A stretch of 64,000 bases of DNA from Alphaproteobacteria bacterium (GCA_964291395.2 OZ219856.1:1024001-1088000), one strand, 5' to 3'. Counted from the stretch's first letter, positions 6,290-59,389 are shown. Notes: generated by a model from the sequence alone, not told the origin. A program made the numbers and translations.

Positions 6290-6291
6290 GC

Positions 6292-35265: not shown

Positions 35266-35312
35266 TCCCGATCGGTCGTCAATGAACCAGGGCACGATCA
35301 AGGAGAGGACAT

Positions 35313-35630
35313 ATGTCGAAGACGTTGGTCATGGTGATGGTGGAAAAGCCTGAGAGTGTCAGCGACGAGGAATTCAATCGACTGTACAGCGAAGACCATA
35401 TCCCGGCGCTCCTGAGCGTTCCCGGGGTGCACGGGGCGAGGCGCTACAGGGTGAACAAGGTGGATGGCGATTTGGACGTGCCGGCGTACTTCGCGTTGTA
35501 CGAAGTCGACTCCCCGGAGACGCGTGGTTCCGAGGCGTGGCAGAAGGCGGCCAACACGGGAGAGTGGGCGGATACCGTTCGCCCGCTTATCACGAAACGC
35601 ATGGCCGTCACGCTCGATCCCATCGATTGA
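35313..35630 (+). CDS. dimeric alpha/beta-barrel protein (DUF4286/EthD-like)
   Basis: EFNRLYSEDHIPALLSVPGV..ARRY..YFALYE; strong RBS. Confidence 0.75.
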   Translation: MSKTLVMVMVEKPESVSDEEFNRLYSEDHIPALLSVPGVHGARRYRVNKVDGDLDVPAYFALYEVDSPETRGSEAWQKAANTGEWADTVRPLITKRMAVTLDPID

Positions 35631-35838
35631 GTTCGCCGGAGCCGACTGTTCGCTGCAGCGCCGGGGGTCCGAGGCCGTTCGCGGAGGCCGTTGAAGTATC
35701 GGATCGTCCCGGAGGAGTTGCCTGCCCGGTAAAGAGCGTTCGGCACGTGCTATCGACCGAGGTCGTTTTGCAGAGGTGGGCTCGCCGGAATGCGTGTTCG
35801 CGGCGGAGGCCCGCGCGTTTCAAGGTAACATACCTCCA

Positions 35839-37932
35839 ATGAGCTGGCGCATCGGCGTTGACATCGGCGGCACGTTCACGGACGTGGCCGTGCTCGACGA
35901 GGTGAGCGGGCGCATCGGTATCGTCAAGACGTCGACCACGCCGCGGGACTTCGTCGCCGGCGTGGTCCACGCGCTGAAAGCGGCGATGGCGCGCCACGGC
36001 GTTCCCGCTTCGGATGTCGTTCTCCTGTCGCACGCGACCACCGTCGTGACCAACGCCATTCTCGAGGAGAAAGGTGCGAAGACCGCTCTGATCACCACGC
36101 GCGGCTTCAGAGATGTTCTCGAGCTGCGCCGTTCGGCTCGCGCGCGTCTCTATGACCGCAATCAGGAGCCGCCGGCCGTCCTCGTGCCCCGTCACAGGAG
36201 ATTCGAGATCACCGAGCGCGTCGGCGCGGACGGCGAGGTGGTGATCCCGCTCGAGGAAGATGAGCTCGACGCCATCGCCGAGGAGATCGGGAACGAAGGC
36301 GTGGAGGCGGTCGCGGTATGCCTCTTGTTCTCGTTTCTCCATGACGATCACGAACGCCGAATCGGTGCGCGGCTGCGGGCCGCATTGCCCGGCGTGCCCG
36401 TCTTCCTCTCCTGCGACGTTCTGCCCGAGTTGAAGGAATTCGAGCGTACCAGCACGACCGCCGTCTGCGCCTATGTCGGCCCCATCCTCGCGTCGTACGT
36501 GGAACGCCTGGAGCAGGCGACTCGGGAGCTGAAACTGCCGCCGCTCCACATCATGGGTTCGAGCGGCGGGTTTCTGGATGTCGCCGAAAGCATGAAGATG
36601 CCGGCCATGGCCGTGGAGTCCGGCCCCGCCGCTGGCGTCGTCGCGGCGGCCTTCATCGGCAGGCAGCTCGACGAGCCGAACCTGATCTCCTTCGACATGG
36701 GCGGCACGACCGCCAAGGCGAGCCTCATCCGTGACGGACGTGTCGAGGTGACGTCGGAGTACGAGGTCGGCGCCGATGCCAACGTCGCCCGTTGGATGCA
36801 CGGCACCGGTCACCCGATCAAGGTGCCCGTCATCGACCTTGCGGAGGTCAGCGCGGGCGGTGGCAGCATCGCGTGGATCGATTCGGGCGGCGGCATGCAC
36901 GTCGGCCCCCGGAGCGCCGGTGCCGAGCCGGGCCCCGTTTGCTACGGGCAGGGCGGGCGGGAGCCCACGGTCACCGACTGCGACCTGATCCTCGGGTACT
37001 TGAATCCGGAATACTTTCTGGGTGGCGAGCTGATCCTCGACGCGGCGGCGGCCGAAGCCGCCTTGCGGGAGAGAGTCGCCGAACCCCTTGGTCTCCCGCT
37101 TCTCGAAGCCGCGGCCGGCGTCGTCGCGGTGGTGGACCACAACATGGCGGAGGCGCTGCGCATCGTTTCCGTCGAACGCGGCCACGATCCGCGCGACTTC
37201 TGCCTCGTCGCGTTCGGAGGCGCGGGGCCGGTGCACGCGGTCAGCCTCGCCCGGGAGCTCGACATCCCGAGGGTCATCGTGCCGCCTATCCCGGGCGGCT
37301 TCTCCGCCTTGGGTTTGGTCGCCACCGACCTGCGCCGGGAATACGTCCGTACCTTCTACAAGCGCCTCGACGAGGTGCCTCCGGATGAGATGTCGGAGGC
37401 ATTGTCGGCGATGGAGGAGATGGGGCGCGACATGCTGGTCGGCGCCGGCGTACCGGAGGTCAGGCGCAAGCTGCAACGGGCCGCGGATGTGCGATACACA
37501 CGGCAGGCCTATGAGCTTACCGTACCGATCGAGGACGGCGATATCGGTGCCGCGCATCTGGCGAAGCTGGCGGAGGCATTCCACGCCCGCCACCGCGCCA
37601 CCTATGGACACGACAGCCCCGACGAGCCGCTGCAGGTCGTCAATCTACGAGTCAGCGCCATCGGCGTTCTGGAGAGCCCGGTTCTGAAAGCGGGCGGTCG
37701 CGGGAGCGGCGCCATTGACGCCGCCCGGCGTGGGACGCGCCAAGTATACTTCAAGAATTTCGGCACAGTCTCGTGCGGGATCTTCGATCGAGACCGCCTG
37801 CCGTCGCGCGGCGATGTACCGGGGCCCGCCATCATCGAGGCGGCGGACACGACAATCGTCGTGCCTCTCGGATGGCGGGCGGGGATCGATCAGAAGGGGT
37901 TTCTCATCATGGAGAGAAGCGGCGATGGCTGA
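35839..37932 (+). CDS. hydantoinase/5-oxoprolinase subunit A
   Basis: GVDIGGTFTD, TTVVTNA, SGPAAG, DMGGTT, GGGSIA. Confidence 0.94.
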   Translation: MSWRIGVDIGGTFTDVAVLDEVSGRIGIVKTSTTPRDFVAGVVHALKAAMARHGVPASDVVLLSHATTVVTNAILEEKGAKTALITTRGFRDVLELRRSARARLYDRNQEPPAVLVPRHRRFEITERVGADGEVVIPLEEDELDAIAEEIGNEGVEAVAVCLLFSFLHDDHERRIGARLRAALPGVPVFLSCDVLPELKEFERTSTTAVCAYVGPILASYVERLEQATRELKLPPLHIMGSSGGFLDVAESMKMPAMAVESGPAAGVVAAAFIGRQLDEPNLISFDMGGTTAKASLIRDGRVEVTSEYEVGADANVARWMHGTGHPIKVPVIDLAEVSAGGGSIAWIDSGGGMHVGPRSAGAEPGPVCYGQGGREPTVTDCDLILGYLNPEYFLGGELILDAAAAEAALRERVAEPLGLPLLEAAAGVVAVVDHNMAEALRIVSVERGHDPRDFCLVAFGGAGPVHAVSLARELDIPRVIVPPIPGGFSALGLVATDLRREYVRTFYKRLDEVPPDEMSEALSAMEEMGRDMLVGAGVPEVRRKLQRAADVRYTRQAYELTVPIEDGDIGAAHLAKLAEAFHARHRATYGHDSPDEPLQVVNLRVSAIGVLESPVLKAGGRGSGAIDAARRGTRQVYFKNFGTVSCGIFDRDRLPSRGDVPGPAIIEAADTTIVVPLGWRAGIDQKGFLIMERSGDG

Positions 37933-39634
37933 CACCGTACCCGCTGCGTTCGCGGACAACGATCCGGCCACGTTCGAAGTGGTCAAGAACAGCCTCTACT
38001 CGATAGCCGCGGAAATGCGCGTCGTCCTGTCGAAAACCGCCTATTCCCCCATCCTGAAGTCGGCGGGCGATTTCTCGTGCGGCATATTCGACGTGCGAGG
38101 CGACATGGTGGCGCAAGGGCCGGACCTGCCCATGCATCTCGGCTCGATGCCGCTGGCCGTCAAGGCCGTCATCCAGGCCTGGGAAGAGGTCGCGCCGGGG
38201 GACGTGTTCATCCACAACGATCCATACTTCGGCGGCTCGCATCTTCCGGACGTCAACGTGGTGACGCCTGCGTTCGCGGATGGACGTTTGCTGGGATTCG
38301 TCTGCCTGCGGGCTCATTGGCCAGATGTCGGCGGCGGCACGCCCGGCAGCTACGGCACCGAGACCGAGATATTCGGCGAGGGCCTGCGTCTGCCTCCGGT
38401 CCGGCTCTATCGCCGGGGCGAACCCCTGCGCGAGGTCGAGGACATCATTTTTGCCAACGTGCGGACCCCGGACGAGGGGCGGGGCAACCTTCGCGCCCAG
38501 GTCGGCGCGAATCGTCGTGCGGTGACCCGACTCGAGGGGCTGGCTCGCCGCCACGGGCCGGATCGCCTGTTGCGCATCATGCAGGGCGTCATGGACCACT
38601 CCGAGATGATGATGCGTCAGGCTCTGGCGGAGTTGCCCGACGGCGAAGGGAGCTTCGAGGACTTCTGCGACGGCGACGGCATCCTCGAGCCGGGTGAGAC
38701 CGAAGACTCACCGTTCACCATCAGGCTGCACGTGAAGAAGAGCGGTGACGAACTCGCGGTCGATTTCACCGGAACCGATCCGGTGGTGCGGGGCCCCATG
38801 AACTCACCGCTGGCCGTGACGGCGTCGGGAGTCTATACCGCCGTGAAGACCGTGGCCGATTCGGACGCGCTGATTCCTCCCAATTCGGGCTGCTGGCGTC
38901 CGATCTCCGTGCAGGCCGAGACCGGGACCGTCGTCAACGCCACGCTTCCCGCGCCCGTGGTGTATGCAAACCACGAAATCGCTCACCGGGTGTGCGACAT
39001 GGTGTATATGGCGATGTCCGGCTTCGCGCCGAACAACGTCATGGCATGCTCCCAGGGAACGTCGGCCATCCTCGCCATGGGCGGCGTCGATCGGCGTACC
39101 GGCAATCGCTACGTCAACTACGAGGTCGTCAAGGGCGGTTTTGGCGCTCGCCCCGGCAAGGACGGTATCAACGCCATCGCTGCCAGCGTCGCCAACACGG
39201 CGAACACGCCGGTCGAGGTCGTGGAAATGAGTTTCCCGCTGCGGGTGGACCGCTACGAGCTGATTCCCGACTCGGGCGGAGCCGGGGAATATCGCGGAGG
39301 TCTCGCGGCCCGCCGCGTGTGGAAGATCCTCGACCACACGGCCCGGGCCACGGTCTGCTGCGAGCGATCCAAATCGCCGCCGTTCGGTCTGTTCGAGGGC
39401 AAGGCGGGTGCGCCTGCGCGCATCTACCTGATCGAGGCGGACGGCACCCGGCGCGACCTCAACAGCAAGGAGCATTTCATCGCGTCCGAGGACTCCGAGA
39501 TCTGGTACGAGGTTCCCGGATCGGGTGGGTTCGGTCCGCCCTCGGAACGCGATCCGGAAAAGGTTCGGGCCGACGTCCGCGACGGCTACGTCAGCGTCGA
39601 GTCCGCCAGGCGCGACTACGGGGTGGATGTCTGA
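37925..39634 (+). CDS. hydantoinase/5-oxoprolinase subunit B
   Basis: DFSCG, HLGS, NDPYFGGSHLPD, HWPDVGG, NTPVE, SGGAG. Confidence 0.94.
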   Translation: MADTVPAAFADNDPATFEVVKNSLYSIAAEMRVVLSKTAYSPILKSAGDFSCGIFDVRGDMVAQGPDLPMHLGSMPLAVKAVIQAWEEVAPGDVFIHNDPYFGGSHLPDVNVVTPAFADGRLLGFVCLRAHWPDVGGGTPGSYGTETEIFGEGLRLPPVRLYRRGEPLREVEDIIFANVRTPDEGRGNLRAQVGANRRAVTRLEGLARRHGPDRLLRIMQGVMDHSEMMMRQALAELPDGEGSFEDFCDGDGILEPGETEDSPFTIRLHVKKSGDELAVDFTGTDPVVRGPMNSPLAVTASGVYTAVKTVADSDALIPPNSGCWRPISVQAETGTVVNATLPAPVVYANHEIAHRVCDMVYMAMSGFAPNNVMACSQGTSAILAMGGVDRRTGNRYVNYEVVKGGFGARPGKDGINAIAASVANTANTPVEVVEMSFPLRVDRYELIPDSGGAGEYRGGLAARRVWKILDHTARATVCCERSKSPPFGLFEGKAGAPARIYLIEADGTRRDLNSKEHFIASEDSEIWYEVPGSGGFGPPSERDPEKVRADVRDGYVSVESARRDYGVDV

Positions 39635-39707
39635 TCGTTGGACCGGCTTTGAGCACCCGGTCGGCGTCTCGCTGTTGTGCACCGGTCGGCATGGCGTTCC
39701 TCCGATG

Positions 39708-40598
39708 CTATTCGCTCCCGTCATAGCGGTCGTCCCACAACGTCATCAGCGCCGGACTTTCCCAGGTGCCCCTTCCGCGCGCGTGCACAGCGGCGTTGAA
39801 TTGGGCGATGAGCGCGGTGATCGGGAGCGCCACGCCGAATCGTCGTGCCTCGTTGAGACAGAGACCCAGGTGGGTCATGAGGGAGTCGATGCCGCCGTCC
39901 ACGGGATCGAGCTCGCCGTCGATCATGCGTTGGATTCTGTGATCGAACCACCAGGATTGTGCCGAGCCCTTGCCGAGCAGTGAAAAAGCCCTGTCCAGAT
40001 CGAGGCCGGATTTGCGGGCGAATGCCACGCCCTCGGCGAGACCCTGCATGTTGGCCGAAATCAGGATCTGGTTGACCATCTTCGTGAGCTGACCGTGCCC
40101 GCTCGGTCCAATGTGATCGGCGGTCCGTGAGTAGGCGGTGAGGTAAGGTTTGGCCGCTGCCACGCCTGCCTCGGTGCCGCCGATCATGACGGCCAGCTCT
40201 CCGGCGTTTGCCAGCTCCTCCGCTCCCGAGACCGGCGCGTCCAGGTATTGGATGCCGCGCTCCGCGGCCGCCGCGGCCGATGCCTCCGCGGCCTGCGCCG
40301 TCATCGTGTTGTGATCGACGAACACGCTGCCGTCGGCCATCGTCTGAAAGGCGCCCGCCGTTCCCCGGGTCACGTCCCGGGACTCGTCGTCGCCCCCGAC
40401 ACAAGTGGCCACGTAGCGGGCGCCTTCCGCGGCCTCCGCCGCCGTGCGGGCGGCCCGCCCGCCGTGCTCGGCGACGAACGCGTCCGCCTTCTCGGAGACG
40501 ATGTCGTGAACCGTCACCTCGTAACCCGCGTTGGCGAGGTGCATGGCCATGGGCCTGCCCATCCGGCCGATACCGATAAACGCAACCTTGTCTGCCAA
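39708..40598 (-). CDS. beta-hydroxyacid dehydrogenase
   Basis: AFIGIGRMG, LDAPVSG, KMVNQ; TTG start after GGAGGT. Confidence 0.9.
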   Translation of the reverse strand: MADKVAFIGIGRMGRPMAMHLANAGYEVTVHDIVSEKADAFVAEHGGRAARTAAEAAEGARYVATCVGGDDESRDVTRGTAGAFQTMADGSVFVDHNTMTAQAAEASAAAAAERGIQYLDAPVSGAEELANAGELAVMIGGTEAGVAAAKPYLTAYSRTADHIGPSGHGQLTKMVNQILISANMQGLAEGVAFARKSGLDLDRAFSLLGKGSAQSWWFDHRIQRMIDGELDPVDGGIDSLMTHLGLCLNEARRFGVALPITALIAQFNAAVHARGRGTWESPALMTLWDDRYDGSE

Positions 40599-40623
40599 TG
40601 GATCACCTCCGGAAGGCTGATAT

Positions 40624-41412
40624 TCAGGTCTTGCGGAAATCCGGTGTCCGCTTTTCCAGGAAGGCGCTCGCGCCCTCATCTCGTTCGCCGCTCGCCAGGC
40701 ACAGCGCGAAGAGTTTGCGCTCGTATTCGATGCCTGCGGTCAGGTCGGCGTCCGGACTCGCCAGAACGGCATCACGGGCGGCCATCAGAGAGACGGGACC
40801 CTTGGCCTGCCATTTGCGGCAGATTTCGCGGCCGGCGTCCATGAGTCCCTCATCTTCGTGCACGGCATTGACCAACCCGATGACGAGTGCCTCGTCGGCG
40901 GATATCGGCTCGCCCAGGGTGACCATCGCCATGGCCCGTCCGAGTCCGACCATGCGGGTCAATCGCTGGGTGCCGCCGCTGCCCGGAATGACGCCGAGGT
41001 TGATCTCGGGCAGGCCGAGCCTCGCCGAGCGTGCCGCGATGCGAAGCGTGCAGGCCAGTGCGATCTCGAGACCGGCGCCAAGACAGTGGCCGTTGACGCA
41101 GGCAAGTGTCGGCAGACGCATGGTTTCCAACAGACGTGGAAGTTCACGGCGCAGGCCGGATTTCGTGGAGAGTTCGCTCGTTACCGTGCGTTCCTTCAGT
41201 TCGTTGACGTCGGCACCCGCGGAGAAGGCCCTGGGGCCGTCGCCGGTCAGGATGACGCAATCCGCCTCGCCGCCGTCTTCCAGGGAATGCAGGGCGTTCA
41301 TGCATTCCTCCCGCATGGGCAGGCTCATGGCATTGTACCGTTCGGGGTCCGAGAGGGTGATGGTCGCTATGCGGTCTTCGATATCGACCGAAATTCGGGT
41401 GTAGGTCGCCAT
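40624..41412 (-). CDS. enoyl-CoA hydratase
   Basis: AFSAGAD, GAGLE, PEINLGVIPGSGGTQRL; both catalytic Glu present. Confidence 0.93.
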   Translation of the reverse strand: MATYTRISVDIEDRIATITLSDPERYNAMSLPMREECMNALHSLEDGGEADCVILTGDGPRAFSAGADVNELKERTVTSELSTKSGLRRELPRLLETMRLPTLACVNGHCLGAGLEIALACTLRIAARSARLGLPEINLGVIPGSGGTQRLTRMVGLGRAMAMVTLGEPISADEALVIGLVNAVHEDEGLMDAGREICRKWQAKGPVSLMAARDAVLASPDADLTAGIEYERKLFALCLASGERDEGASAFLEKRTPDFRKT

Positions 41413-41431
41413 GATCTCTCCACTTCGGGCT

Positions 41432-42997
41432 CTAAGCTGACGCCGAGTCGAGCAGGCTGGCCGCAAGTTCCGCGCGAACGGTCTTGCCGCTCGCGTTCCG
41501 CGGGATCGTCGCTACCAGCTCGAGTCGGCGGGGTTTCTTGTAATCTGCCAATTCCCGCGCGCAGTGGGACTGAAGGTCCGCCAGATCGGGGTGTTCTCCG
41601 TGGCGTGGGATGACGCACGCCGTGACGATCTGGCCCCACTTGGCATCGGGCAAGCCCACGACGGCGCAATCGAATACGGCGGGATGGCACATCAACACCT
41701 GCTCGATCTCTGCGGGGTGGATGTTGACGCCCCCGCTGATGATGATCTCCTTCAGCCGGCCGACGAGGTAGAGGTATCCGTCCTCGTCGAGATAACCGAG
41801 GTCGCCGGTGTGGAACCATCCGTCCGTGAACGCGGCCGCGGTGGCTTCGGAGTCGTTCAGGTACTCGCGCATGACCGAGGGGTTGAGACACCGGATTTCG
41901 CCGACCTCGCCGGTCGGCAGCGCCGCGCCATCCTCTCCTGCGATCCGGATCTCGACCCCGGCGAACGGCGTTCCGACGGACGCCGGCTTGCGCCGTTGAT
42001 CCGCGGGCTCCAGGACCGTCATGCTGTTCGATTCCGTGGAGCCGTAGTAGTCGAACAGCCGGGGCGTCATGCGCTTCAGCACCTTTTCCTTGATCGCCGG
42101 TTGAAGAGGTGATCCGCAGGTCACAAGGCGGGACAGGCTCTCCAGGTTTCGGGGGGCGGAACCGCGTTCCAGTTCATCGAGCACCATGACCAGCACGGTG
42201 GGCACGACGAGGCTCGACGTCACCCGTTCGCTGGTGACGAGCGCCAGGTACTCGGCGGGATCGAAGTCGCGCTGGATGTGCACGCGTCCCCCGGTGTGCA
42301 GATGCATCAGCGTGAACGTGAGACCCGCCGAATGCACCTGGGGCATGACACCGAGATAGGTGTCTTCGGTGCCGAGGCCGTAAACGTCGATCGCCTTGTG
42401 GATCCAGACCATGCGGGCACGGTGGGTGGAGAGCGCGCCCTTGGGTTGGCCGGTCGTGCCCGAGGTGAACATCAGGCTGAAGTCGTCGTCCGGCGAAACG
42501 TCGGGGAGTGCGCCGGGCAACGACTCGCACAGTCGATCGAATGTCGCGTCGCCGGCGCCTCCGTCTGGATCGATGGAAACGATTTCCGGGAGGTCGATTT
42601 TCGCACGGGCGACCGCACGCTCGATCGTGTCCGTCCGGTCGACGGTGGTAACGAGGGTGCGGGGGCGGGCGAGGGCCAGAAGGCCCGCGATTTCACCTTC
42701 CTTCAGGCGCGGGTTGATGGGCGAGAAAATCCCGCCTGCCCGCGCGACCGCCAGGACGATGACCACGTAGGCAATGCAGTTGGGGAGGTAGGCGGAGACG
42801 ACGTCCCCCTTGCGCACGCCGAGATTTATAAAGCCCGCGGCAAGGCCGCTGGCTCGGCGATCGAGGTCGCCGAAGGTCAATGAGGCGTTTCCGTCGGTCA
42901 GGGCAACCTTGCCGGGCGCGGCGCGGGCGACCGCCGTGCCGATCCGGCCGACACGGAGGTCTTCGTTTCCTCGAGACCGTTCAGCCCCGGTCGCCAT
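41432..42997 (-). CDS. acyl-CoA ligase (ANL/AMP-binding)
   Basis: FTSGTTGQPKG, YGSTE, HTGDLG, SGGVNI, PRNASGK. Confidence 0.94.
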   Translation of the reverse strand: MATGAERSRGNEDLRVGRIGTAVARAAPGKVALTDGNASLTFGDLDRRASGLAAGFINLGVRKGDVVSAYLPNCIAYVVIVLAVARAGGIFSPINPRLKEGEIAGLLALARPRTLVTTVDRTDTIERAVARAKIDLPEIVSIDPDGGAGDATFDRLCESLPGALPDVSPDDDFSLMFTSGTTGQPKGALSTHRARMVWIHKAIDVYGLGTEDTYLGVMPQVHSAGLTFTLMHLHTGGRVHIQRDFDPAEYLALVTSERVTSSLVVPTVLVMVLDELERGSAPRNLESLSRLVTCGSPLQPAIKEKVLKRMTPRLFDYYGSTESNSMTVLEPADQRRKPASVGTPFAGVEIRIAGEDGAALPTGEVGEIRCLNPSVMREYLNDSEATAAAFTDGWFHTGDLGYLDEDGYLYLVGRLKEIIISGGVNIHPAEIEQVLMCHPAVFDCAVVGLPDAKWGQIVTACVIPRHGEHPDLADLQSHCARELADYKKPRRLELVATIPRNASGKTVRAELAASLLDSASA

Positions 42998-43706
42998 GAT
43001 CCGCAATGAGGGACTTGAGCTGTTCCAGAGCGGCGGACAAGGGTATTTCGGCGGGACAGACGCTTTCGGCGCGGACGATCGCGTCCCCGCCCAAGCTGTG
43101 CACTTCCGCGGCGATTTCCTTCAGGCGCGCCGCCCCGGCGCCGTCCCGTTCGTCGAGCGCGAGCATGAGCAGACGATTGAGGGCGGCCGGTCCGACACCG
43201 TCGTCGCCCTTCGCCTCATCGGCAATGGCGGAGACGCAGGCGCCGCAGGTGATGCAGCCGTTCTGCGCCTCGATCGTGGTGCGTTCGTTGGAGGCGGGCG
43301 GTATGACCGGCAGATCCCGGCGATCGGGCTCCCGCGGACGAAGGGCGGCTTCGGCGCGGGCCAGGCCATCGAAAAAGGGCCGCATGTCGGCGATCAGGTC
43401 GTGTCGCGTCGGCAGGCCCCTCAACGGTTCGATACGCAGAGTTCCACCGTCGGTTTCGCCGAGAGAGGTCTGGCACGCCAGGGCTTCCCGGCCGTTGATC
43501 ACGACGGCGCAGGCTCCGCACATACCGACACGGCAGGCGTAACGGAACCCGAGGGTGGGGTCCTCGTTCTCGCGCGCCCAGTTCAAGGCGTCGAGAACGC
43601 GTGCGTGCGCGGATCGCACTGGCACTTCGAAATGGCTCCGGTCCGCCGGATTCGTCCGGGCGACCTCGAGGGTGACGGTGGCGTTCGATCCGGCGATGTC
43701 GGTCAT
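42981..43706 (-). CDS. SdhB/FrdB-like iron-sulfur subunit with reduced Cys content
   Basis: FRYACRVGMCGAC...C, CITCGAC, GPAAL, VCP. Confidence 0.88.
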   Translation of the reverse strand: MTDIAGSNATVTLEVARTNPADRSHFEVPVRSAHARVLDALNWARENEDPTLGFRYACRVGMCGACAVVINGREALACQTSLGETDGGTLRIEPLRGLPTRHDLIADMRPFFDGLARAEAALRPREPDRRDLPVIPPASNERTTIEAQNGCITCGACVSAIADEAKGDDGVGPAALNRLLMLALDERDGAGAARLKEIAAEVHSLGGDAIVRAESVCPAEIPLSAALEQLKSLIADHGDRG

Positions 43707-45484
43707 GCGGGGATGAGGGTCTCGCCCCGCAGGGCCTCGGGCGTACGGCGGGTGAAGTCGACGGGGCGGGGTTCGGTATTCGGTTTTCCGTCAGCGGTGC
43801 GCCGCTGGACGAAGTTGACGAGGAAGCGGTCGTCGGAGTCGGGAACGTCCTCGCGGAAGTGGCTGCCCCGGCTCTCTTCCCGGGCGCTCGCCGCCGTGCC
43901 GATGAGACGCGCCACGTCGATCAGGTTCTCCGCGTCCAGGCGTTCCTGCAGGTCGGGATTTGCGCCGCGCCTCGCCGGCATGGCCAAGGCGCCGAGTTCA
44001 CCTTCGATGGCGTCCAGTTCATCGGCTGCCCGTGCCAAACCGTCTGCATCACGGAGAATGCCCAGGTAGTCCCAGGCCAGGGCGCGCAGCCGGTTCTTCA
44101 GTTTGAAGGGCTGTCCCGTGATCTCGCCGGACCCGTCCAGACGGACACGGGCCGGGCCGAGCCGGTCCTTGTCGAAGGGCGCACGCGTCCCTTCTCTCGC
44201 GTGACGGGCGATCGACTCACCGGCGATGGCCCCGAACACCATCGATTCAGCCACTCCATTGCCGCCGAGGCGGTTGGCGCCGTGGACGCCGCCGGCGTCC
44301 TCGCCCGCGGCGAACAACCCGTCCACGGTTGTGCGGCAGTCGGTGTCGATAAGGATGCCGCCCATTTGGAAGTGCGCCGTGGGGGTCACCTCGATCAGGT
44401 CCGTTGCCATGTCGGTGCCGACCGTCAGGCAGCGGGCATACATGCCTGGCGAGGACTTGAGCAGGAACTCCTTGCCGAGATGCCGGACGTCGAGATAGAT
44501 GCCTTCGCTGGCCGTACCGCGACCGGCGCGAATCTCCATCATGCCGCTCCGCGAGACGCGGTCGCGGGTCGAGCGTTCCATCTTCTCGGGATCGTAGCGC
44601 TCCATGTAGCGCTCGTGATTGGCGTTGAGCAGGTGGCCGCCGGCGCCCCGCAGCCCTTCCTCGAGGACCGTCCCGTTCAGCAGCGAACCATCCACGATGA
44701 GTCCCGTGGGATGGAATTGCATCATCTCCATGTCGACGAATTCGGCGCCGGCCCGGTACGCCATCGCCAGCCCGTCTCCCGACTTCTCGAGCGAAGCCGC
44801 GGTGATGCGGTAGAGAGGGGCGGCCCCGCCCGTCGCCAGGAGGACGGCGGTGGCGTGGGCGGTGATGAGCTCGCCGCTGTGATGGTCGAGCAACAGCGCG
44901 CCGGCCACCGTTCGACCCGAGGCATCCAGCAGCAGGTCGATTCCGCGAACCTCGTTGAGCAGCTCGATGTCGCGAACGAGGACCTGTTCCGAAAGGCGGC
45001 TGATGATCTCGATTCCGGTGAGGTCGCCGCAGTGGATGGTGCGGTTGAACGATTGGCCGGCAAGCGCTCGCTGGTGAATGGTGCCGTCGGCGTTGCGGTC
45101 GAAGGTGCATCCGAAGGAGTTCTCCATCTCGAAAACGCGCTCGGGTGCCTGCGTGACCAGGGTCCAGGCAAGCTCCTGATTGTTGATCAGGTTGCCGCCC
45201 CGGATGGTGTCGTCGTAGTGCTTGTCGACCGAATCGTCTTCGTGCAGGACGACGTTGTAGCCGCCCTGAACCATGCGCGTGCAGCCGCTCTTGCCGAACA
45301 GGCCCTTGCTGGCCAAAACGATATCGAGGTCGGGCGCGGAGTCGCTCGCGTGAATCGCCGCGAACAGGGCGGCGCCGCCGCCGCCGATGATCAGGACGTC
45401 ACAGGTCAGGGATTGCACGTGGGTCGCTCGGCGATAAGGGGCGTCTGGATCGAGACTGACGGCACGCCGGGAGTCATAGACCAT
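43703..45484 (-). CDS. SdhA/FrdA-family flavoprotein
   Basis: IIGGGGAA, QFHPTG, E.LRG.GG, HFQMGG, HGANRLGGNG, REESRGSH. Confidence 0.92.
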   Translation of the reverse strand: MVYDSRRAVSLDPDAPYRRATHVQSLTCDVLIIGGGGAALFAAIHASDSAPDLDIVLASKGLFGKSGCTRMVQGGYNVVLHEDDSVDKHYDDTIRGGNLINNQELAWTLVTQAPERVFEMENSFGCTFDRNADGTIHQRALAGQSFNRTIHCGDLTGIEIISRLSEQVLVRDIELLNEVRGIDLLLDASGRTVAGALLLDHHSGELITAHATAVLLATGGAAPLYRITAASLEKSGDGLAMAYRAGAEFVDMEMMQFHPTGLIVDGSLLNGTVLEEGLRGAGGHLLNANHERYMERYDPEKMERSTRDRVSRSGMMEIRAGRGTASEGIYLDVRHLGKEFLLKSSPGMYARCLTVGTDMATDLIEVTPTAHFQMGGILIDTDCRTTVDGLFAAGEDAGGVHGANRLGGNGVAESMVFGAIAGESIARHAREGTRAPFDKDRLGPARVRLDGSGEITGQPFKLKNRLRALAWDYLGILRDADGLARAADELDAIEGELGALAMPARRGANPDLQERLDAENLIDVARLIGTAASAREESRGSHFREDVPDSDDRFLVNFVQRRTADGKPNTEPRPVDFTRRTPEALRGETLIPA

Positions 45485-46850
45485 CGGCGAGGTCTGACAA
45501 GGCGCGGTCGACCCCTTCCACGATGTAATCGACGTCGTCGCTGGTCGTGATGAGGGGGGGCAGGATCGGGATCACGCCGTCCGCGGCTCGCGTCAATAAG
45601 CCGTGGCTATCGAGGAGAGCCGTGATCTTGTCGCTGACGCCCATGGCTGCCGGAAACCGCTCCCGCGTCTCCCGGTCCTTCACCAGTTCGACCGCGGCGA
45701 ACAGTCCCTTGCCGCCCCGGATGTCGCCGACGAAAGGATGGCGATAGAGCACCTGAAGGCGTTCGAACAGATACTGCCCCATCTTCGCCGAGTTCTCGAC
45801 CAGGTTCTCTTCCTCGATGATCTTGAGGTTGGCGAGCGCCGCGGCGCAGGCGATCGGGTGACCGCCATAGGTATAGAGATGGCGGAACTTCTCGTCCTCG
45901 CCGCCCAGGAACGTATCGGCGACCTCCTTGCGCGCAATCGCGCCGGCGGCGGGGAGATAGCCGCTGCTCAACTGCTTGGCCATGGTCGTGATGTCGGGCT
46001 GTACGTCCCAGTGCATGCTGGCGAACCACTTGCCCGTTCGCCCGTATCCGGTGACCACCTCGTCCATGATCATCAATACGCCGAAGCGATCGCAGATCTC
46101 GCGGATGGTGGGCCAATAGTCGTCGTGAGGAATGTAGACGCCGCCGGTGATCGACATGGGCTCGCCGATGAAGGCGGCTACCGTCTCGGGTCCCTCGTCC
46201 TCGATGACGCGTTCGACGTCGCGCGCGCATTCGAGCGTGCACGAGCCGTTCTCCGCGCAGAGCGAACAGCGGTACTCGTTGGGCTGGGTCACGTGAAAGT
46301 TGCCGGGTTGCAGCGGACCGTAGTCCTCGGGCGCCGCGATACCGCCGCCGCCCGCGGCCATCGTCGCGTGAGTGCCGCCATGGTACGAGCCGGCTCGGCT
46401 GACGACCTTGTAACGGCCGGCGTCGCCCCGGATCTTGTGGTACTTCTTGGCGATCTTGAGAGCGACTTCGTTCGACTCGGCGCCGCCGTTGGTCAGAAAC
46501 ACCCGAGAGCCCTTGTCGGGCGCGAGGCTGGCGATTTTGGCCGAGACTCGGATGGTATTGGGATTCGTGCCTGCCCAGGGGTTCGACGTGATTCCCTGCA
46601 TGGCCTCGTGGACGGCGTCCGCGATCTCCTTGCGGCCATAGCCAACCGCCTGCAGCCACATCCCGGACATCATGTCGAAGACTCTTCGGCCTTCGATGTC
46701 GGTGAGCCAGCAACCCTCGCCGCTTTCGTAGATCTTCAGCGTCTCCGGCGTCTGGGCGAAGTCGTTCATCTGGTGGAACGGGAGCCACAGATGATCGATC
46801 GCCATCCGGCGCAGGTCTTCATGCGACTGTTCGTTTTCGCGTCCGGTCAT
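45474..46850 (-). CDS. class III PLP aminotransferase (omega-amine type)
   Basis: GGAESNE, SYHG, DEVVTGYGRTG, TMAKQLSSGY, YTYGGHP. Confidence 0.93.
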   Translation of the reverse strand: MTGRENEQSHEDLRRMAIDHLWLPFHQMNDFAQTPETLKIYESGEGCWLTDIEGRRVFDMMSGMWLQAVGYGRKEIADAVHEAMQGITSNPWAGTNPNTIRVSAKIASLAPDKGSRVFLTNGGAESNEVALKIAKKYHKIRGDAGRYKVVSRAGSYHGGTHATMAAGGGGIAAPEDYGPLQPGNFHVTQPNEYRCSLCAENGSCTLECARDVERVIEDEGPETVAAFIGEPMSITGGVYIPHDDYWPTIREICDRFGVLMIMDEVVTGYGRTGKWFASMHWDVQPDITTMAKQLSSGYLPAAGAIARKEVADTFLGGEDEKFRHLYTYGGHPIACAAALANLKIIEEENLVENSAKMGQYLFERLQVLYRHPFVGDIRGGKGLFAAVELVKDRETRERFPAAMGVSDKITALLDSHGLLTRAADGVIPILPPLITTSDDVDYIVEGVDRALSDLADGL

Positions 46851-46969
46851 GTCGTTGGCTCCCTGAGGAAATACGTTGAGCGCGCGGCTCCGGCAAACAT
46901 ACCAGATACCCCTCCGGTCTTTCCCCCGCGCTCGCCACCGATGGTGCCGGGAGGGGGAGTAACGATTCG

Positions 46970-48352
46970 TCAGGAGGCGAGCACGGCGTCGGCACGTTCG
47001 CGCGCGGCGGACGCGCGCTGCGGGTCGCCCAGAGCCTCCAGCGTTTCGGCGTACTTGAGCCAATTCCCGCGACTGTTGGGTTTCTCGGCGATCCGTTCGG
47101 CCAGCAGCGTCCGCGCGAGGCCAAGGCGCCTGCTCCGGATCGCCGATTCGATCAGCACCTGGGCGAAGATGTCGCGTTGCGCGTGGCTGCCGCCGACGTG
47201 GGCGAGGTCGTAGCGCAAGGGCAGCAGGCCATCGACCACGGCGTCATGGTTATCCTTGGCGAAGTCGAGCAGGGCCTGACAGATCGGGATCGTCGTCGAC
47301 TCCATGGTCGCGGCGGCGAAGTTGTCGGGCGTCTTGGCAAAAGCATGCAGCGACGCCAACAGCTTCTCGGCGGCGTCGTAGCGCTTGTCGCCCGCCAGCG
47401 CCATCATCGTGTGGGTGTCGGTGAAGGCGAGGACATGATCGTCCACGTGCGCCTCCATGGCATCCGCCAAGGGCTTCCAGCGGTCGCCCACGTCGACGCC
47501 GAGGAGGTCGAGGCGCAGCAGCATGGAGGCGCCGTTCTGGACGTCGAGATAGAAGTCCCATGCCTCGGGTTTGACGGAGCGGTCGAACAGCGTGAGCACG
47601 TCGTCGTAGTCGCCTGCCTCGACCGAATACATGGTCAGGTGCCACCAGAGATGGCCTTTGAAGGGATTGCGGTCCTCCCAGGCGTCCGCCGGGTAATCCA
47701 GCCACTGCATCCCCTCGCGCAGGCGGCCCTGCATCTCGAGGACGTGGGCGACCGCGTGGATCGCCCAGAGGTCGTCCGGGTTGGCCTCGACGGCCCGGCG
47801 CCCGAATTCCTCGGCCCGCGCGTACTCGCCGCATTCCTCCAGGCCGAAGGCGTACATGCCCTGGACGCTGCCGTAGCCGGGCACGGAGTCGTCCCACTGG
47901 TCGATGACCCGGGCGACGCCGTCGCGGAGGTCCTGCGCGCGGCCCATCCAGAAGGAATTGTAATGCTGCAAGCGCAGCGCCAGCAGGTCATGGGGATGTT
48001 CCCGGAGGATGCCGTCCCAGACGGCGCAGGCCGACGTCAGGTCGCCGCGGGACCAGGCCCTGAGCGCGTCCACGTGGGCGGCTTCCCGGCTCGTGACCTT
48101 GCCGACGCCCGCTTCGGCGGCAGCGAGGCTTTCCTCGATCTTCGGCTCCACCGCGGTCGTTCCGAACAGATTGAACAGGTAGCCCTTGAAGCACTGCCCC
48201 ATGACGAAGTCGGGATCCGCTCCGAGCATCCGCTTGATGGCGTCTCCGACCCCCGCCCGGTAGTCCAGGTACTGCGCCATCGTCTCCTTGAAGCCCTCCA
48301 CGGCGTCGGCGCTGTCGGTGGTCAGGGTGAGGCCGCGTTCGTCGCTGTACAT
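46970..48352 (-). CDS. TTC38-like tetratricopeptide repeat protein
   Basis: AFGLEE, WAIHAVAHVLEM, HLWWH, GGSHAQRD. Confidence 0.88.
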   Translation of the reverse strand: MYSDERGLTLTTDSADAVEGFKETMAQYLDYRAGVGDAIKRMLGADPDFVMGQCFKGYLFNLFGTTAVEPKIEESLAAAEAGVGKVTSREAAHVDALRAWSRGDLTSACAVWDGILREHPHDLLALRLQHYNSFWMGRAQDLRDGVARVIDQWDDSVPGYGSVQGMYAFGLEECGEYARAEEFGRRAVEANPDDLWAIHAVAHVLEMQGRLREGMQWLDYPADAWEDRNPFKGHLWWHLTMYSVEAGDYDDVLTLFDRSVKPEAWDFYLDVQNGASMLLRLDLLGVDVGDRWKPLADAMEAHVDDHVLAFTDTHTMMALAGDKRYDAAEKLLASLHAFAKTPDNFAAATMESTTIPICQALLDFAKDNHDAVVDGLLPLRYDLAHVGGSHAQRDIFAQVLIESAIRSRRLGLARTLLAERIAEKPNSRGNWLKYAETLEALGDPQRASAARERADAVLAS

Positions 48353-48463
48353 GGTCGTTCCTCACGTGGGTCGAGACGGTCCGGGGGGCATGGTTTAGAC
48401 GGGAATCGCCGTGTCTTCAACGGCACCCCGGGGGCGCATTCGCGAGTTGGACGAAACCGGCCG

Positions 48464-48793
48464 CTATGAGTCGCCCCCACCCTCCAGGCGGACGTAGATC
48501 TTCCCGTTTTCGACCTTGGTGGCGTAGGTGTCGAGGGCGACGGAGACCGGTGCGCCTTTCGGCTTGCCGGTGGGAATGTGGAACCGCCCCTGATGGACCG
48601 GGCACTCGATGATGTCGTCGATCACGATCCCCTCGGAAAGGAAGGCGAAGGCATGGGTGCAGACGTTCTCTGTGGCATAGAACTCCCCCTTCACGTTGTA
48701 GACGGCCACGGCGGTGCCCTCGACGTTGACGCCGAGAACGTCCTCTTCCTCGATATCGTCGGTCGATGCGACCAGATGCCATTCTTCGGCCAT
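48464..48793 (-). CDS. Rieske [2Fe-2S] ferredoxin (MocE-like)
   Basis: CTH...CPVHQGRF. Confidence 0.93.
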   Translation of the reverse strand: MAEEWHLVASTDDIEEEDVLGVNVEGTAVAVYNVKGEFYATENVCTHAFAFLSEGIVIDDIIECPVHQGRFHIPTGKPKGAPVSVALDTYATKVENGKIYVRLEGGGDS

Positions 48794-48829
48794 GCCGCGA
48801 GCCTCCTGTCGTCTACGGGTGAATGCCGG

Positions 48830-49834
48830 TCAGATGGACTGGATGAGGCGGAACCGGAACCTTCGTTCCAAGTGGTCGCGCAGGACGTCCCGCTGGACCG
48901 CCCAATACCCCTTGTCGACGGGGTTCATCTCGTGACCCACCTCGGCGTGCAGCGCGGGCAGGGCGTGGAACGGAACCGACGGAGCCAGATGGTGCTCGCA
49001 ATGATAGGGCATGTTCCAGCAGAGGAACCGGGTCAGGGGGTCGGTCTTCACGGTGCGGGCGTAGGTCCGGAGATCGAGCTTCCCTTCCGTGCAGCCGGTA
49101 TGGTCGGCGACTCGGAGGGCCCGCGCCACGGGCACGCCGATGACCGTGGGGATGGCCCAGTAGATGGCGACGGCCCAGGTCTCGAGGCCGACGCTGACGA
49201 CGGCGAGGCCCACGTAAATCGCCAGCATGACGCGGGCCTCGAAGAAGATCTTCGGCAACTGGTCCTCGGGCACGAACTGGCGGTTGAACGGGCGAATCCG
49301 GCCCATGGAATGGCGCAGGATCCAGCCGATGTTCTTGATCCACAGTTGGGTGGCCGTGACGTAGTAGACATAGTCCATCCACGACGAGGGACTCGGCAGC
49401 ACGTATTGCGGGTCTTTGTCCATTTCCTGGGCATGGGTGTGATGGCCGGTATGGTCGTAGCGGAAATACGTGGGCGGCCACACGATCAGGATGCCCGTGA
49501 TCCAGTGCACGGTCTCGTTGAGCCAGCGGGTGCGGAAGGCGGTGCCGTGGCTGCACTCGTGCATCGGCGCGAACAGGTGCCCCAGCATGACGCCGTGCAG
49601 CAACATCGCCGGAATCAGCCAGCCGGTCCCCGTGGCCAGATACACCAGATATCCGGTCCCGAAGATGATCGACATGTGTCCGCCGAGATGGATCAGGCCG
49701 TGGCGGTCGGTGCGCTTGGTGAAGGGCTTGAGCCGTCCGCGCGAGATGATCTCCCGCTGCGCCGCCAAGAGCTTCGCATTGGCCTCGGGGCTGGTCAGCT
49801 TTTGGGTCGAGGGGTCGGCGGTTGCGGCTTCCAA
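48830..49834 (-). CDS. fatty-acid-desaturase-family di-iron enzyme (MocD-like)
   Basis: His boxes HECSH, HTGHH and WNMPYHCEHH; PFHALP. Confidence 0.9.
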   Translation of the reverse strand: MEAATADPSTQKLTSPEANAKLLAAQREIISRGRLKPFTKRTDRHGLIHLGGHMSIIFGTGYLVYLATGTGWLIPAMLLHGVMLGHLFAPMHECSHGTAFRTRWLNETVHWITGILIVWPPTYFRYDHTGHHTHAQEMDKDPQYVLPSPSSWMDYVYYVTATQLWIKNIGWILRHSMGRIRPFNRQFVPEDQLPKIFFEARVMLAIYVGLAVVSVGLETWAVAIYWAIPTVIGVPVARALRVADHTGCTEGKLDLRTYARTVKTDPLTRFLCWNMPYHCEHHLAPSVPFHALPALHAEVGHEMNPVDKGYWAVQRDVLRDHLERRFRFRLIQSI

Positions 49835-49989
49835 TGTGGTGTCCTTTCGCTAAACTCCCGGCGAATTTTTTTCACCGGAGCGGCGCTCGAACCTAGCAGC
49901 GGCGATCCACGTTCTCAAGCGATCCCAGGCGTATGGGGCGATTCGCATGGACGGGTTCGGGCGCCGTGACGACATGTCCCAGGGAGGCG

Positions 49990-51552
49990 ATGAAACAGAT
50001 GTCAGCACCCAATTTCCTTTTCATTCAGGCCGATCAGATGGCGGCGCCGGTTCTGCCGGTCTATGGACACCCGCTGGTCAAGGCACCGCACCTCGAAAGT
50101 CTGGCGCGCGACGGAGTCACCTTCGAGAACGCCTATTGCAACAATCCGATTTGTGCGTCGTCCCGTTTCTCGATGATGGCGGGGCAGCTTCCCTCGCGGA
50201 TCGGTGCCTATGACAACGCGGCGGAGTTCCCGGCGACCGTGCCGACCTTTGCCCATTACCTGCGGGCGCTCGGTTACACCACGTGCCTGAGCGGCAAGAT
50301 GCACTTCGTCGGGCCGGATCAATTGCACGGCTTCGAGGAGCGGCTGACCACCGACATCTATCCGTCGGATTTCGGCTGGACGCCCGACTGGTCGAAAGGG
50401 GATAGGCAGTTGCCGCCATCGGGCATGAGCATGCGCAGTGTCGTCGAGGCCGGCCTCTGTCGGCGCAGCCTGCAGATCGATTACGACGAGGACGTCGGGT
50501 TCCAGGCGGTACAGAAGATCCACGACTACGCGCGCGACCCGGACCGCAAGCCGTTCTTCCTCGCGGCGTCGTTCACGCACCCGCACAACCCGTTCACGAT
50601 CACGCCGGAGTTCTGGGACCTCTACGACCACGACGACATCGACCTGCCCAAATATCCCGGCAAGCCCGTCGAGGAGCGCGATCCCTGGAGCCGGCGCTAT
50701 CACTACCTGATCCGTCAGGACGAACACGAGATCACCGACGAGCACCTGCGCAATGCGCGGCATGCCTACTACGGCATGGTGAGCTACGTCGACCACCACG
50801 TGGGCCGGCTGCTCGGCGCGTTGGAGGCCACGGGCCTCGCCGGCAACACGATCGTGGTATTCACCGCGGACCACGGCGAGATGATGGGCGAGCGAGGCAT
50901 GTGGTACAAGTTCAACCCCTTCGAATGGTCCGTCCGCGTGCCGTTGATCGTCCGTGCGCCGGGGAACGCCAAGGGGCGTCGCGAAGCGAAGTCGGTCTCG
51001 CTCGTCGACCTGCTGCCCACGTTGCTCGACCTCGCCACGGACGGCAGTCCACCCGACCTGGTGGAGCCCGTGGATGGGCACACGTGGTCCGGCATGCTCC
51101 ACGGCGAAGACGACTCGCGACCCGACGAGGCCATGGTCGAGTTCACCGCCGAGGGCGCCATCGCGCCGTGTCTGATCCTGCGCAAAGGTCCATACAAGTA
51201 CATCTATAGCGAGCCCGACCCCGGTATGATGTTCGATGTCGAGACCGATCCGGGCGAGCAGGAGAATCTTTGCGGCGATCCCGAGCACGAGGATCTGGCG
51301 GAGGAGATGCTGGCGGATATCCTCGGTCGCTGGGATCCGCAGAGCATCGAGGAAGACATTCTGGAGAGCCAGCGCCGGCGTCACTTCATCCAGAGCGTAC
51401 TGATGAGCGGCCGACCGGCCCCGTGGGACTACCAACCCATGCGTGATGCCTCGCGGCAATACCTGCGGACGGGCGGCAGCCCGACGATGGTCAAGGGATT
51501 GGCGCGCTTCCCCTATATGGAGCCGGTGCCTCCGGACTTCCCGCGGGCCTGA
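49990..51552 (+). CDS. betC: choline sulfatase
   Basis: DQMA, ICASSR, AYDNA, GKMHFVGPDQLHGFEERLTTDIYP, WDYQP. Confidence 0.9.
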   Translation: MKQMSAPNFLFIQADQMAAPVLPVYGHPLVKAPHLESLARDGVTFENAYCNNPICASSRFSMMAGQLPSRIGAYDNAAEFPATVPTFAHYLRALGYTTCLSGKMHFVGPDQLHGFEERLTTDIYPSDFGWTPDWSKGDRQLPPSGMSMRSVVEAGLCRRSLQIDYDEDVGFQAVQKIHDYARDPDRKPFFLAASFTHPHNPFTITPEFWDLYDHDDIDLPKYPGKPVEERDPWSRRYHYLIRQDEHEITDEHLRNARHAYYGMVSYVDHHVGRLLGALEATGLAGNTIVVFTADHGEMMGERGMWYKFNPFEWSVRVPLIVRAPGNAKGRREAKSVSLVDLLPTLLDLATDGSPPDLVEPVDGHTWSGMLHGEDDSRPDEAMVEFTAEGAIAPCLILRKGPYKYIYSEPDPGMMFDVETDPGEQENLCGDPEHEDLAEEMLADILGRWDPQSIEEDILESQRRRHFIQSVLMSGRPAPWDYQPMRDASRQYLRTGGSPTMVKGLARFPYMEPVPPDFPRA

Positions 51553-59376: not shown

Positions 59377-59389
59377 TGCCGAACGCGCC

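Follow-up and report, generated by a model that had tools for sequence, protein, structure and literature searches.

Among the systems that resemble the locus described here, the rhizopine oxygenase MocD/MocE/MocF of Sinorhizobium meliloti L5-30 and Rhizobium leguminosarum combines a membrane di-iron protein and a Rieske ferredoxin with the reductase MocF. A flavoprotein paired with an iron-sulfur (Fe-S) subunit is the hallmark of complex II (E. coli SdhCDAB and FrdABCD) and of the soluble, anchor-less TfrAB of methanogens, in which TfrB has an extra C-terminal thiol-oxidising part. Activation, desaturation and hydration of 3-substituted propanoates or butanoates are carried out in the dimethylsulfoniopropionate (DMSP) route by DmdB, DmdC and DmdD, and in the gamma-butyrobetaine/carnitine routes. 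Counterparts of several of these elements lie side by side in a run of nine minus-strand genes at 39708-49834 of a 64-kb stretch of DNA (the window) from a sponge-associated alphaproteobacterium. From its 5' end the run encodes a MocD-like oxygenase, a Rieske ferredoxin, a TTC38-family protein, a class-III (omega-) aminotransferase, an SdhA/FrdA-like flavoprotein (SdhA'), an SdhB-like subunit (SdhB'), an acyl-coenzyme A (acyl-CoA) ligase, an enoyl-CoA hydratase (crotonase) and a beta-hydroxyacid dehydrogenase (Table 1). An initial annotation had taken these nine co-oriented and tightly spaced genes for one catabolic system; Pfam, NCBIfam and the coordinates of the open reading frames (ORFs) bear out the families, orientation and packing, and no described pathway with this gene set was found in the literature searched. 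As we describe below, the main value of the locus lies in a four-gene core rather than in the nine-gene set.

For the core we surveyed 16 metagenome contigs and one genome (G152), and separate neighbour counts used 18 loci with an SdhA' of at least 60% identity. An SdhA' orthologue of at least 63% identity is present at all 16 metagenome loci, and the contig extends past the gene in 12 of them. SdhB', then the ligase, then the hydratase are complete in 10 of these 12 contigs, and the remaining two (L134 and L187) keep the same gene order until the contig ends. G152, a distant alphaproteobacterial genome, has the order SdhA' (66% identity)-SdhB'-ligase-aldehyde dehydrogenase-hydratase. In the core-clade contigs the ligase orthologues that follow SdhB' are 50-57% identical to the window's protein (74% in L131), and the hydratases that follow the ligase 64-84%. 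In a FastTree phylogeny of 80 SdhA-like sequences, rooted on the housekeeping SdhA of the same genome, the 17 ligase/hydratase-linked SdhA' sequences are monophyletic (support 1.0). We conclude from gene order and phylogeny that the four genes are a widely conserved unit, in which a monophyletic and widespread Sdh-like branch always comes with a CoA ligase and a crotonase; no described function for this core was found in the literature searched. The final steps put forward in the initial annotation, namely action of the flavoprotein on a C-C or C=C bond, CoA activation and hydration, fit this unit.

As to the individual core proteins, the crotonase has both catalytic Glu motifs (LPE... and GEP...) intact (40624-41412/41466), and the CoA ligase matches no NCBIfam model at its cut-off. 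An IclR regulator precedes the core in 13 of the 18 loci, a PrpD/MmgE-family gene follows it in seven, with a second crotonase also following, and two Sdh_cyt anchor genes stand between SdhA' and SdhB' in eight. TctC-type binding proteins occur in the Pfam-annotated contigs L133, L136, L137 and L175. When a plasmid collection was searched with SdhA', all 17 matching records were below 60% identity, so that there is no named core-clade carrier among these plasmids. Contig L175 (GC content 41%) also holds, at 4721-6482, a SoxC-type sulfite dehydrogenase (TIGR04555, 593 bits, cut-off 420) together with a cytochrome c; the pair lies about 3.5 kb upstream of an anchored core, with a TctC receptor, a flavocytochrome-c/TcuA-like flavoprotein and an IclR gene in between.

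Conservation of the nine-gene set was followed from the TTC38 gene, for which a profile built from 16 homologues gave 79 genome loci, taken with flanks of up to 10 kb. The set is kept at only two of them, L002 and L003, both metagenome-assembled genomes with 76-92% protein identity to the window. L002 and L003 share 90-94% DNA identity, and L003 lacks the aminotransferase through a clean indel relative to L002 that takes out exactly that gene; a hydantoinase B remnant downstream is common to L003 and the window. Given the high identity and the shared flanking remnant, we regard the two loci and the window as close kin and not as independent witnesses. Among the 77 other TTC38 loci, 47 offer flanks of 1.5 kb or more upstream and 8.5 kb or more downstream, and in none of these did we find the MocD-like, Rieske, SdhA', SdhB' or dehydrogenase genes. 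A search of 401 alphaproteobacterial genomes, the window's own included, yielded two same-family genomes with only a 47-49% identical SdhA paralogue and a 34-35% identical MocD-like gene. The locus L131, with an SdhA' of 83% identity, has two DUF1330 genes and a TauE-family gene ahead of its aminotransferase, TauE being directly upstream, followed by the core, and has neither the oxygenase nor TTC38. Among the core-bearing metagenome contigs L131 alone has the aminotransferase; the gene is also found in L002 and not in L003, and the beta-hydroxyacid dehydrogenase accompanies the core in L002 and L003 only. Since the set is absent outside close kin and its modules recur separately, gene order indicates that the nine genes are a lineage-specific patchwork of separable modules around the conserved core and not a conserved system. 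The expectation of shared synteny in other genomes therefore fails beyond close relatives; of the proposed single catabolic system, the gene families, the loss of the anchor (see below) and the logic of the final steps stand, and the nine genes as a conserved system do not. What suggests a pathway shared by all nine is solely their packing.

The sister group of the core clade (support 0.92) consists of nine alphaproteobacterial sequences, encoded in the order SdhB-SdhC-SdhD-SdhA and followed by a two-subunit class-I fumarase-like hydro-lyase. Fumarase-like matches are present at seven of the eight sister-clade genome loci, TauE at four, and a SuyB-like and an Ldh_2 gene at two each. The window's own genome (G000) has a cluster of this type (G000:C1:582986-587882, that is L119:10986-15882), with a flavoprotein 50% identical to SdhA'. 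In both clades the His that attaches flavin adenine dinucleotide (FAD) is replaced, and the same first step would be expected of both, whereas the sister-clade clusters have SdhC/D anchors, three Fe-S clusters and an Fe-S hydro-lyase where the window type has a CoA ligase and a crotonase. The simplest reading of these gene orders is that the core clade swapped hydration by the Fe-S hydro-lyase for CoA ligation and crotonase action. A family-III CoA-transferase, a CoA ligase and a TauD-family gene are found near the L119 cluster.

When aligned to E. coli FrdA (1kf6_A), SdhA' keeps His232, Arg287, His355 and Arg390; in FrdA, His232, His355 and Arg390 bind the substrate and Arg287 shuttles protons. 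The retention of these dicarboxylate-binding His and Arg residues suggests that the substrate is di-anionic. Where FrdA has the SHT motif with its FAD-attachment His, SdhA' reads GKSGCT, and FrdA Thr244 is replaced by Glu; both changes are found in seven of seven aligned clade members, anchored ones included. An invariant Cys adjoins the FAD-attachment position (GCT) in all aligned clade members. The window pair thus resembles complex II in its two subunits, its substrate His/Arg residues, the proton-shuttle Arg and the 2Fe-2S and 4Fe-4S ligands, and differs from it in the missing covalent-FAD His, the Glu at position 244, and the absence of an anchor and of 3Fe-4S ligands. The best-scoring named family for SdhA' is TfrA, which like the window pair belongs to a soluble, anchor-less enzyme; its score of 575 bits is below the cut-off of 718, that for TfrB is 108 against 385, and the 241 residues of SdhB' cover positions 3-220 of the 488-position TfrB model. 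An L-aspartate or amine oxidase of the NadB type was considered and rejected (TIGR00551, 356 bits, cut-off 453; an overlapping Fe-S partner gene is present), as was adenosine 5'-phosphosulfate (APS) reductase (121 bits, cut-off 557).

The initial annotation had described the Sdh-like pair as anchor-less, and neither the ORF list nor Pfam shows an Sdh_cyt anchor ORF between or beside SdhA' and SdhB'; we found that the 3Fe-4S cysteines are lost as well. SdhB' keeps the four Cys of the 2Fe-2S cluster and four Cys that we assign to the 4Fe-4S cluster, and the three 3Fe-4S positions read I, G and A; the columns were allotted to clusters on the assumption that they correspond to those of E. coli SdhB. 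All three 3Fe-4S cysteines are kept in none of 10 anchorless SdhB' proteins, as opposed to five of five full-length anchored ones of the core clade; at least two are missing in eight of the 10, and one in L133 and L136. Because the ligands were lost along with the anchors, we take the anchorless state to reflect evolution into a soluble enzyme rather than a gap in the assembly. The clade thus displays an evolutionary series in which anchored three-cluster forms grade into soluble forms without the quinone-side cluster. Lacking both anchor and 3Fe-4S ligands, SdhA'B' must deliver its electrons to, or receive them from, a soluble partner, which raises the question of what that partner is.

These features could also describe a soluble reductase with non-covalent FAD that saturates an unsaturated diacid, the CoA module then acting on the saturated product or belonging to another branch. 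The replaced FAD-attachment His of all seven aligned clade members, the best match to the thiol:fumarate reductase TfrA, and the loss of the anchors and of the quinone-proximal 3Fe-4S site would all suit such an enzyme. On the other hand, the sister clade keeps anchors and a hydratase partner, the layout of an oxidative succinate-to-malate-like sequence, a hydratase placed right after the ligase needs an enoyl-CoA, and the invariant Cys at the His position could, speculatively, tether FAD. We therefore consider a reductase decidedly unlikely.

We favour, with moderate confidence, a composite operon in which the core desaturates, CoA-ligates and hydrates a succinate-like diacid and to which lineage-specific feeder steps have been added; here we infer the direction of the flavoprotein step, the order of the steps, the substrate and the participation of the added genes in the same pathway. 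SdhA' would introduce a double bond into a succinate-like di-anionic acid, X-CH2-CH2-COO-, the ligase would form the CoA thioester of the unsaturated acid, and the crotonase would then hydrate it. Upstream of the core, the omega-aminotransferase would convert an amine into the corresponding aldehyde, the oxygenase pair would hydroxylate or demethylate a precursor, and TTC38 might also take part in precursor preparation. The beta-hydroxyacid dehydrogenase may act at either end of the route, turning an aldehyde into an alcohol or the reverse; its NCBIfam scores are 198 for tartronate semialdehyde reductase (cut-off 341), 150 for HIBADH (cut-off 292) and 126 for sulfolactaldehyde reductase (cut-off 348). 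The steps resemble those of the Dmd and carnitine routes, where the double bond is introduced into the thioester by an acyl-CoA dehydrogenase, whereas the site of the Sdh-like enzyme suggests that here the free diacid would be oxidised before ligation. By NCBIfam, the window proteins show no sequence-level membership in DmdB, DmdC, DmdD or the carnitine routes.

For the substrate, 3-sulfopropanoate is our leading, weak guess. It would be reached from homotaurine or a methylated relative, and hydration of 3-sulfoacryloyl-CoA at C3 would lead to spontaneous release of sulfite. We propose such an expulsion by analogy with DmdD, in which the substituent leaves when water is added to the carbon that bears it. 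The guess draws on the sulfonate-related genes at sister-clade loci, on the TauE gene next to the aminotransferase and core of L131, on SsuA-family binding proteins at three of the 18 core loci, and on the discussion in PMC11489063. In passages of that paper, 3-sulfopropionate degradation is described as previously unreported, one thesis excepted, and the thesis route, found in a marine Roseovarius, is said to run from homotaurine via 3-sulfopropionate and sulfoacrylate to sulfolactate (PMC11489063). The same passages describe a homotaurine 'patchwork' in Cupriavidus necator H16, made up of a 2-oxoglutarate-dependent aminotransferase and a 3-sulfopropanal dehydrogenase (PMC11489063). So far as these passages go, an omega-aminotransferase that opens the way to a C3 sulfonate acid would agree with the aminotransferases of the window and L131, whereas the best solved relatives of the window's enzyme are pyruvate-type omega-, putrescine and polyamine transaminases, thus mostly pyruvate-type, and the window run differs from the H16 genes in having no aldehyde dehydrogenase. 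If 3-sulfopropanoate is indeed the substrate, the core would constitute a second aerobic route, dependent on CoA, for a sulfonate for which the open literature searched gives no breakdown genes. For sponge symbionts, the locus is a further candidate means of using amines or sulfonates from the host.

Several observations weigh against this interpretation. The core clade has few sulfonate markers (TauE at one and SsuA-like proteins at three of the 18 loci), and its IclR, PrpD/MmgE and TctC-type neighbours equally suit a carboxylate substrate. By Pfam, the run has neither an aldehyde dehydrogenase for the step from 3-sulfopropanal to 3-sulfopropanoate nor a sulfite exporter or transporter gene. 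E. coli FrdA and SdhA without covalent FAD are poor succinate oxidisers, so with non-covalent FAD the SdhA' step could run as a reduction, and the Glu at the Thr244 position is clade-wide and without explanation. No activity could be assigned to TTC38 by profile or fold comparison. The full set is limited to close kin that share some flanking sequence, so its conservation tells little about function, and transcript signals across the run (see below) fall short of the bridging standard applied.

Turning to the added modules, the oxygenase pair resembles MocDEF in that a membrane FA_desaturase di-iron protein with three His boxes (HECSH, HTGHH and HCEHH in the translation) is followed directly by a small Rieske ferredoxin. 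It differs in the absence of a MocF reductase and of inositol/mocABC genes, in the low identity of the MocD-like protein (33%) to a Rhizobium leguminosarum plasmid copy in an inositol/moc-like context, and in a Rieske protein that is below the MocE cut-off: the latter scores 87.8 with MocE_fam TIGR02377 (cut-off 136.15) and, higher, 101.9 with AndAb (cut-off 150), both under cut-off. Its CTH...CPVH motif is invariant in five of five aligned homologues. In NCBIfam the MocD-like protein has weak matches, far under cut-off in every case, to desaturases and the GntB arginine hydroxylase. The absence of a MocF-type reductase and of inositol genes had already been remarked on in the initial annotation, and both statements held: Pfam reveals no such reductase in the run and no inositol or mocABC families across the window. 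A search of the genome with the ferredoxin reductase of another pair-bearing locus (G039, L121) returned two weak partial matches, 32-36% identical over about 180 of 409 residues, a query by which absence is not proven.

The MocD-like/Rieske pair recurs alone elsewhere, accompanied by a LysR gene. In G039 the genes after it encode the ferredoxin reductase, a Pantoate_transf-like protein and an OpuAC binding protein, and on a Ruegeria plasmid, where the MocD-like copy is 39% identical and paired with a Rieske ferredoxin, it lies amid amino-acid ATP-binding cassette (ABC) transport, sarcosine oxidase and MttB-like genes. The window's genome contains six MocD-like copies by tblastn; the five besides the window's are 36-50% identical and have no Rieske neighbour, and the window's Rieske gene is the only close copy there. 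The papers listed by a literature search on MocD and MocE include none on this gene set, and those listed for desaturases, Rieske proteins and betaines give no account of such an enzyme. The locus places MocD-type oxygenases outside inositol metabolism. Two of the MocD-like paralogues, in L129 (G000:C2:49000-68900) and L130 (G000:C1:30000-49900), stand in the same gene set in mirrored order, comprising the large and small subunits of glutamate synthase, SoxY, SoxZ, a cytochrome c and a flavocytochrome c sulfide dehydrogenase; this likeness may be due to duplication, or to two strains in the assembly, for which a contamination of 9% is stated. Another paralogue lies beside four TauE genes within about 5.7 kb (L126:8289-13969), and the whole genome has 22 TauE/SafE (PF01925) matches, unusually many for one genome.

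The company of these pairs bears on a further possibility, in which all nine genes form one linear pathway for a non-sulfonate amine-bearing acid, for instance a methylated beta- or gamma-amino acid or a betaine of the sponge host. Here the oxygenase would demethylate or hydroxylate, the aminotransferase deaminate and the Sdh-like pair alter a C=C bond, with CoA activation, hydration and oxidation at the end. Uptake genes for betaines or amino acids and methylamine genes near MocD-like/Rieske pairs (OpuAC in L121; the Ruegeria plasmid) would agree with such a substrate, as would the omega type of the aminotransferase and the tight, co-oriented packing, and the sequence of ligase, dehydrogenation, hydratase and hydroxyacid dehydrogenase is the logic of the gamma-butyrobetaine/carnitine CoA route. 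We nevertheless judge a single linear pathway unlikely: there is no synteny beyond kin, L003 does without the aminotransferase and L131 without the oxygenase and TTC38, and SdhA' keeps both anion-binding His/Arg pairs, which suit a di-anionic substrate and not an amino or betaine acid.

A far bolder idea, to which we give very little credence, is that SdhA'B' itself is the missing reductase of the oxygenase. Electrons withdrawn from a succinate-like intermediate would leave FAD by way of the 2Fe-2S and 4Fe-4S clusters, reduce the Rieske ferredoxin and so reach the MocD-like protein. A late dehydrogenation would in this way pay for an early O2-requiring hydroxylation or demethylation within one pathway, and no NAD(P)H reductase would be needed. 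Such a pathway would start from a C3 sulfonate amine of the sponge host, methylated or sulfated, and its crotonase would expel sulfite. Complex prediction for SdhA', SdhB' and the Rieske ferredoxin gave a score of 0.00 in two runs, which counts neither for nor against binding.

TTC38 relatives are numerous (3186 among 8000 scored candidates), and a homologue with 82% identity in the Protein Atlas falls into clusters automatically named TTC38 or tetratricopeptide repeat (TPR), without a function. An alignment of 16 sequences revealed many invariant polar residues, and the AlphaFold2 model (predicted local distance difference test score, pLDDT, 85) consists entirely of helices. Compared with solved structures using Foldseek, the model matched only TPR solenoids, with TMq values of at most 0.52 and no enzyme fold, and a profile search of solved structures returned generic or designed TPR repeats only. 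At the 77 TTC38 loci other than L002 and L003, an acyl-CoA dehydrogenase gene is adjacent in 14 and a DAO-type oxidoreductase gene in nine, and a glutamine-synthetase-like gene is nearby in eight. TTC38 stands directly behind a same-strand flavoprotein gene at 10 loci with an acyl-CoA dehydrogenase and eight with a DAO-type gene (among L004-L080), which hints at a role of TTC38 linked to flavin dehydrogenases. No relevant report on TTC38 in bacteria or catabolism was found in the literature searched.

Within the run, the MocD-like and Rieske genes are 36 bp apart, and the gaps on either side of the TTC38 gene, estimated at about 110-120 bp in the initial annotation, measure 111 bp towards the Rieske gene and 119 bp towards the aminotransferase, the latter counting from ATG 46850 with AGGGAG upstream. 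The close spacing reported from the aminotransferase onward likewise holds, with overlaps or at most a few tens of bases: the aminotransferase and SdhA' genes overlap by 11 bp and the SdhA' and SdhB' genes by 4 bp, and at the last three junctions the choice of start codon decides between overlap and a gap of about 20-40 bp. The listed ORF starts of the aminotransferase, ligase, hydratase and dehydrogenase are probably too far upstream, and an ORF at 48417-48782 that overlaps the Rieske gene belongs to no family and is not the gene. Minus-strand terminator-like sites inside the run numbered zero, and a consensus promoter scan of 39000-50500 gave zero sites against 1.5 expected.

Table 1. Genes of the run at 39708-49834 and its divergent neighbour; families by Pfam and NCBIfam, coordinates as ORF boundaries.
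Feature	Coordinates	Strand	Details
MocD-like membrane di-iron oxygenase, FA_desaturase family	48830..49834	-	334 aa, TTG start; PF00487, E 1.5e-37
Rieske-type [2Fe-2S] ferredoxin	48464..48793	-	109 aa; PF00355, E 7.7e-20
TTC38-family TPR protein	46970..48352	-	460 aa, all-helical; TPR_14/19/17
Class-III (omega-) aminotransferase	45474..46850	-	about 458 aa; PF00202, E 1e-95
SdhA/FrdA-like flavoprotein SdhA'	43703..45484	-	593 aa; PF00890 + PF02910
SdhB-like Fe-S subunit SdhB'	42981..43706	-	241 aa; PF13085, no Fer4 domain match
AMP-forming acyl-CoA ligase	41432..43006	-	PF00501 + PF13193; start uncertain
Enoyl-CoA hydratase (crotonase)	40624..41466	-	PF00378, E 1e-61; probable start ATG 41412
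Beta-hydroxyacid dehydrogenase, HIBADH / tartronate-semialdehyde reductase family	39708..40679	-	PF03446 + PF14833
Choline-sulfatase-type gene, divergent neighbour	49933..51552	+	TIGR03417, 650 bits against cut-off 433

One sponge RNA library (X19) contains near-identical contigs of 322-688 nt at a depth of 3-6, scattered over the run; others fall in the sulfatase gene and in the convergent hydantoinase gene. Under a 31-letter rule, the Rieske/MocD-like junction alone is bridged. Since DNA carry-over is possible, X19 demonstrates neither transcription nor co-transcription of the run. From the tight spacing and the lack of a terminator-like site, we consider the catabolic operon real and its genes probably co-transcribed. 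Among public sequencing data, 20 runs from 14 studies match the window, 10 of them labelled sponge metagenome, and at least half of the window's sampled words are present in 18 of the 20. One DNA run from a separate study yielded contigs collinear with the whole gene run, with 17-68 differing letters per 1.3-3.9 kb.

The spacing also allows the genes to be seen as neighbours that share no pathway: the sulfatase and the MocD-like/Rieske pair would act on a sulfated or methylated onium compound, TTC38 would stand apart, and the aminotransferase, core and dehydrogenase would serve an ordinary C4/C5 dicarboxylate, for instance methylsuccinate or an acid of the itaconate type. TTC38 is indeed set off by its gaps on both sides, each module is found alone elsewhere, the IclR, PrpD/MmgE-family and TctC genes at core-clade loci of other bacteria are typical of carboxylate catabolism, and an Ich/mesaconyl-CoA-hydratase-like MaoC gene and an acyl-CoA dehydrogenase gene lie 2-4 kb off in the window. 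Yet neither a terminator-like site nor a regulator gene separates the modules, and the block from sulfatase to dehydrogenase stays joined in L002 and L003, close kin though they are. We thus regard unconnected neighbours as rather improbable and retain the composite operon as the preferred interpretation.

The divergent sulfatase gene scores 649.6 with the BetC model TIGR03417 (cut-off 433.45) and has three further copies in the genome, 47-55% identical. Its product is 91-92% identical in L002 and L003, where the gene is likewise divergent from the MocD-like gene. In close relatives the sulfatase gene thus accompanies the run, and we count it among the neighbours that deserve attention. A choline-to-betaine route was considered and rejected, as BetA/BetB-type families are absent from the run. 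The 98-bp region between the sulfatase and MocD-like genes (49835-49932) contains blocks conserved with L002 and L003, among them TTGAGA-17 nt-TAGGTT, and GGAGTTTAGCGAAAGG just ahead of the TTG start; these may represent a putative shared promoter and ribosome site. No regulator gene adjoins this region.

The surrounding 40 kb of the window are dense in catabolic genes. The intervals 13318-14310, 22816-25722, 28510-31619 and 33787-39634 hold genes for a TauD-family dioxygenase, a TRAP transporter, a family-III CoA-transferase and the hydantoinase/oxoprolinase A and B subunits, and a Rieske oxygenase with a LigXa-like C-terminal domain is encoded beside a glutamine-synthetase-like gene. Further along, at 54395-62529, lies a toxin-antitoxin/defence-type island with an AbiEii nucleotidyltransferase (54395-56011), a Fic-domain protein (56460-58100), an NYN/YacP-like protein and a BrnT-type toxin (62116-62529).

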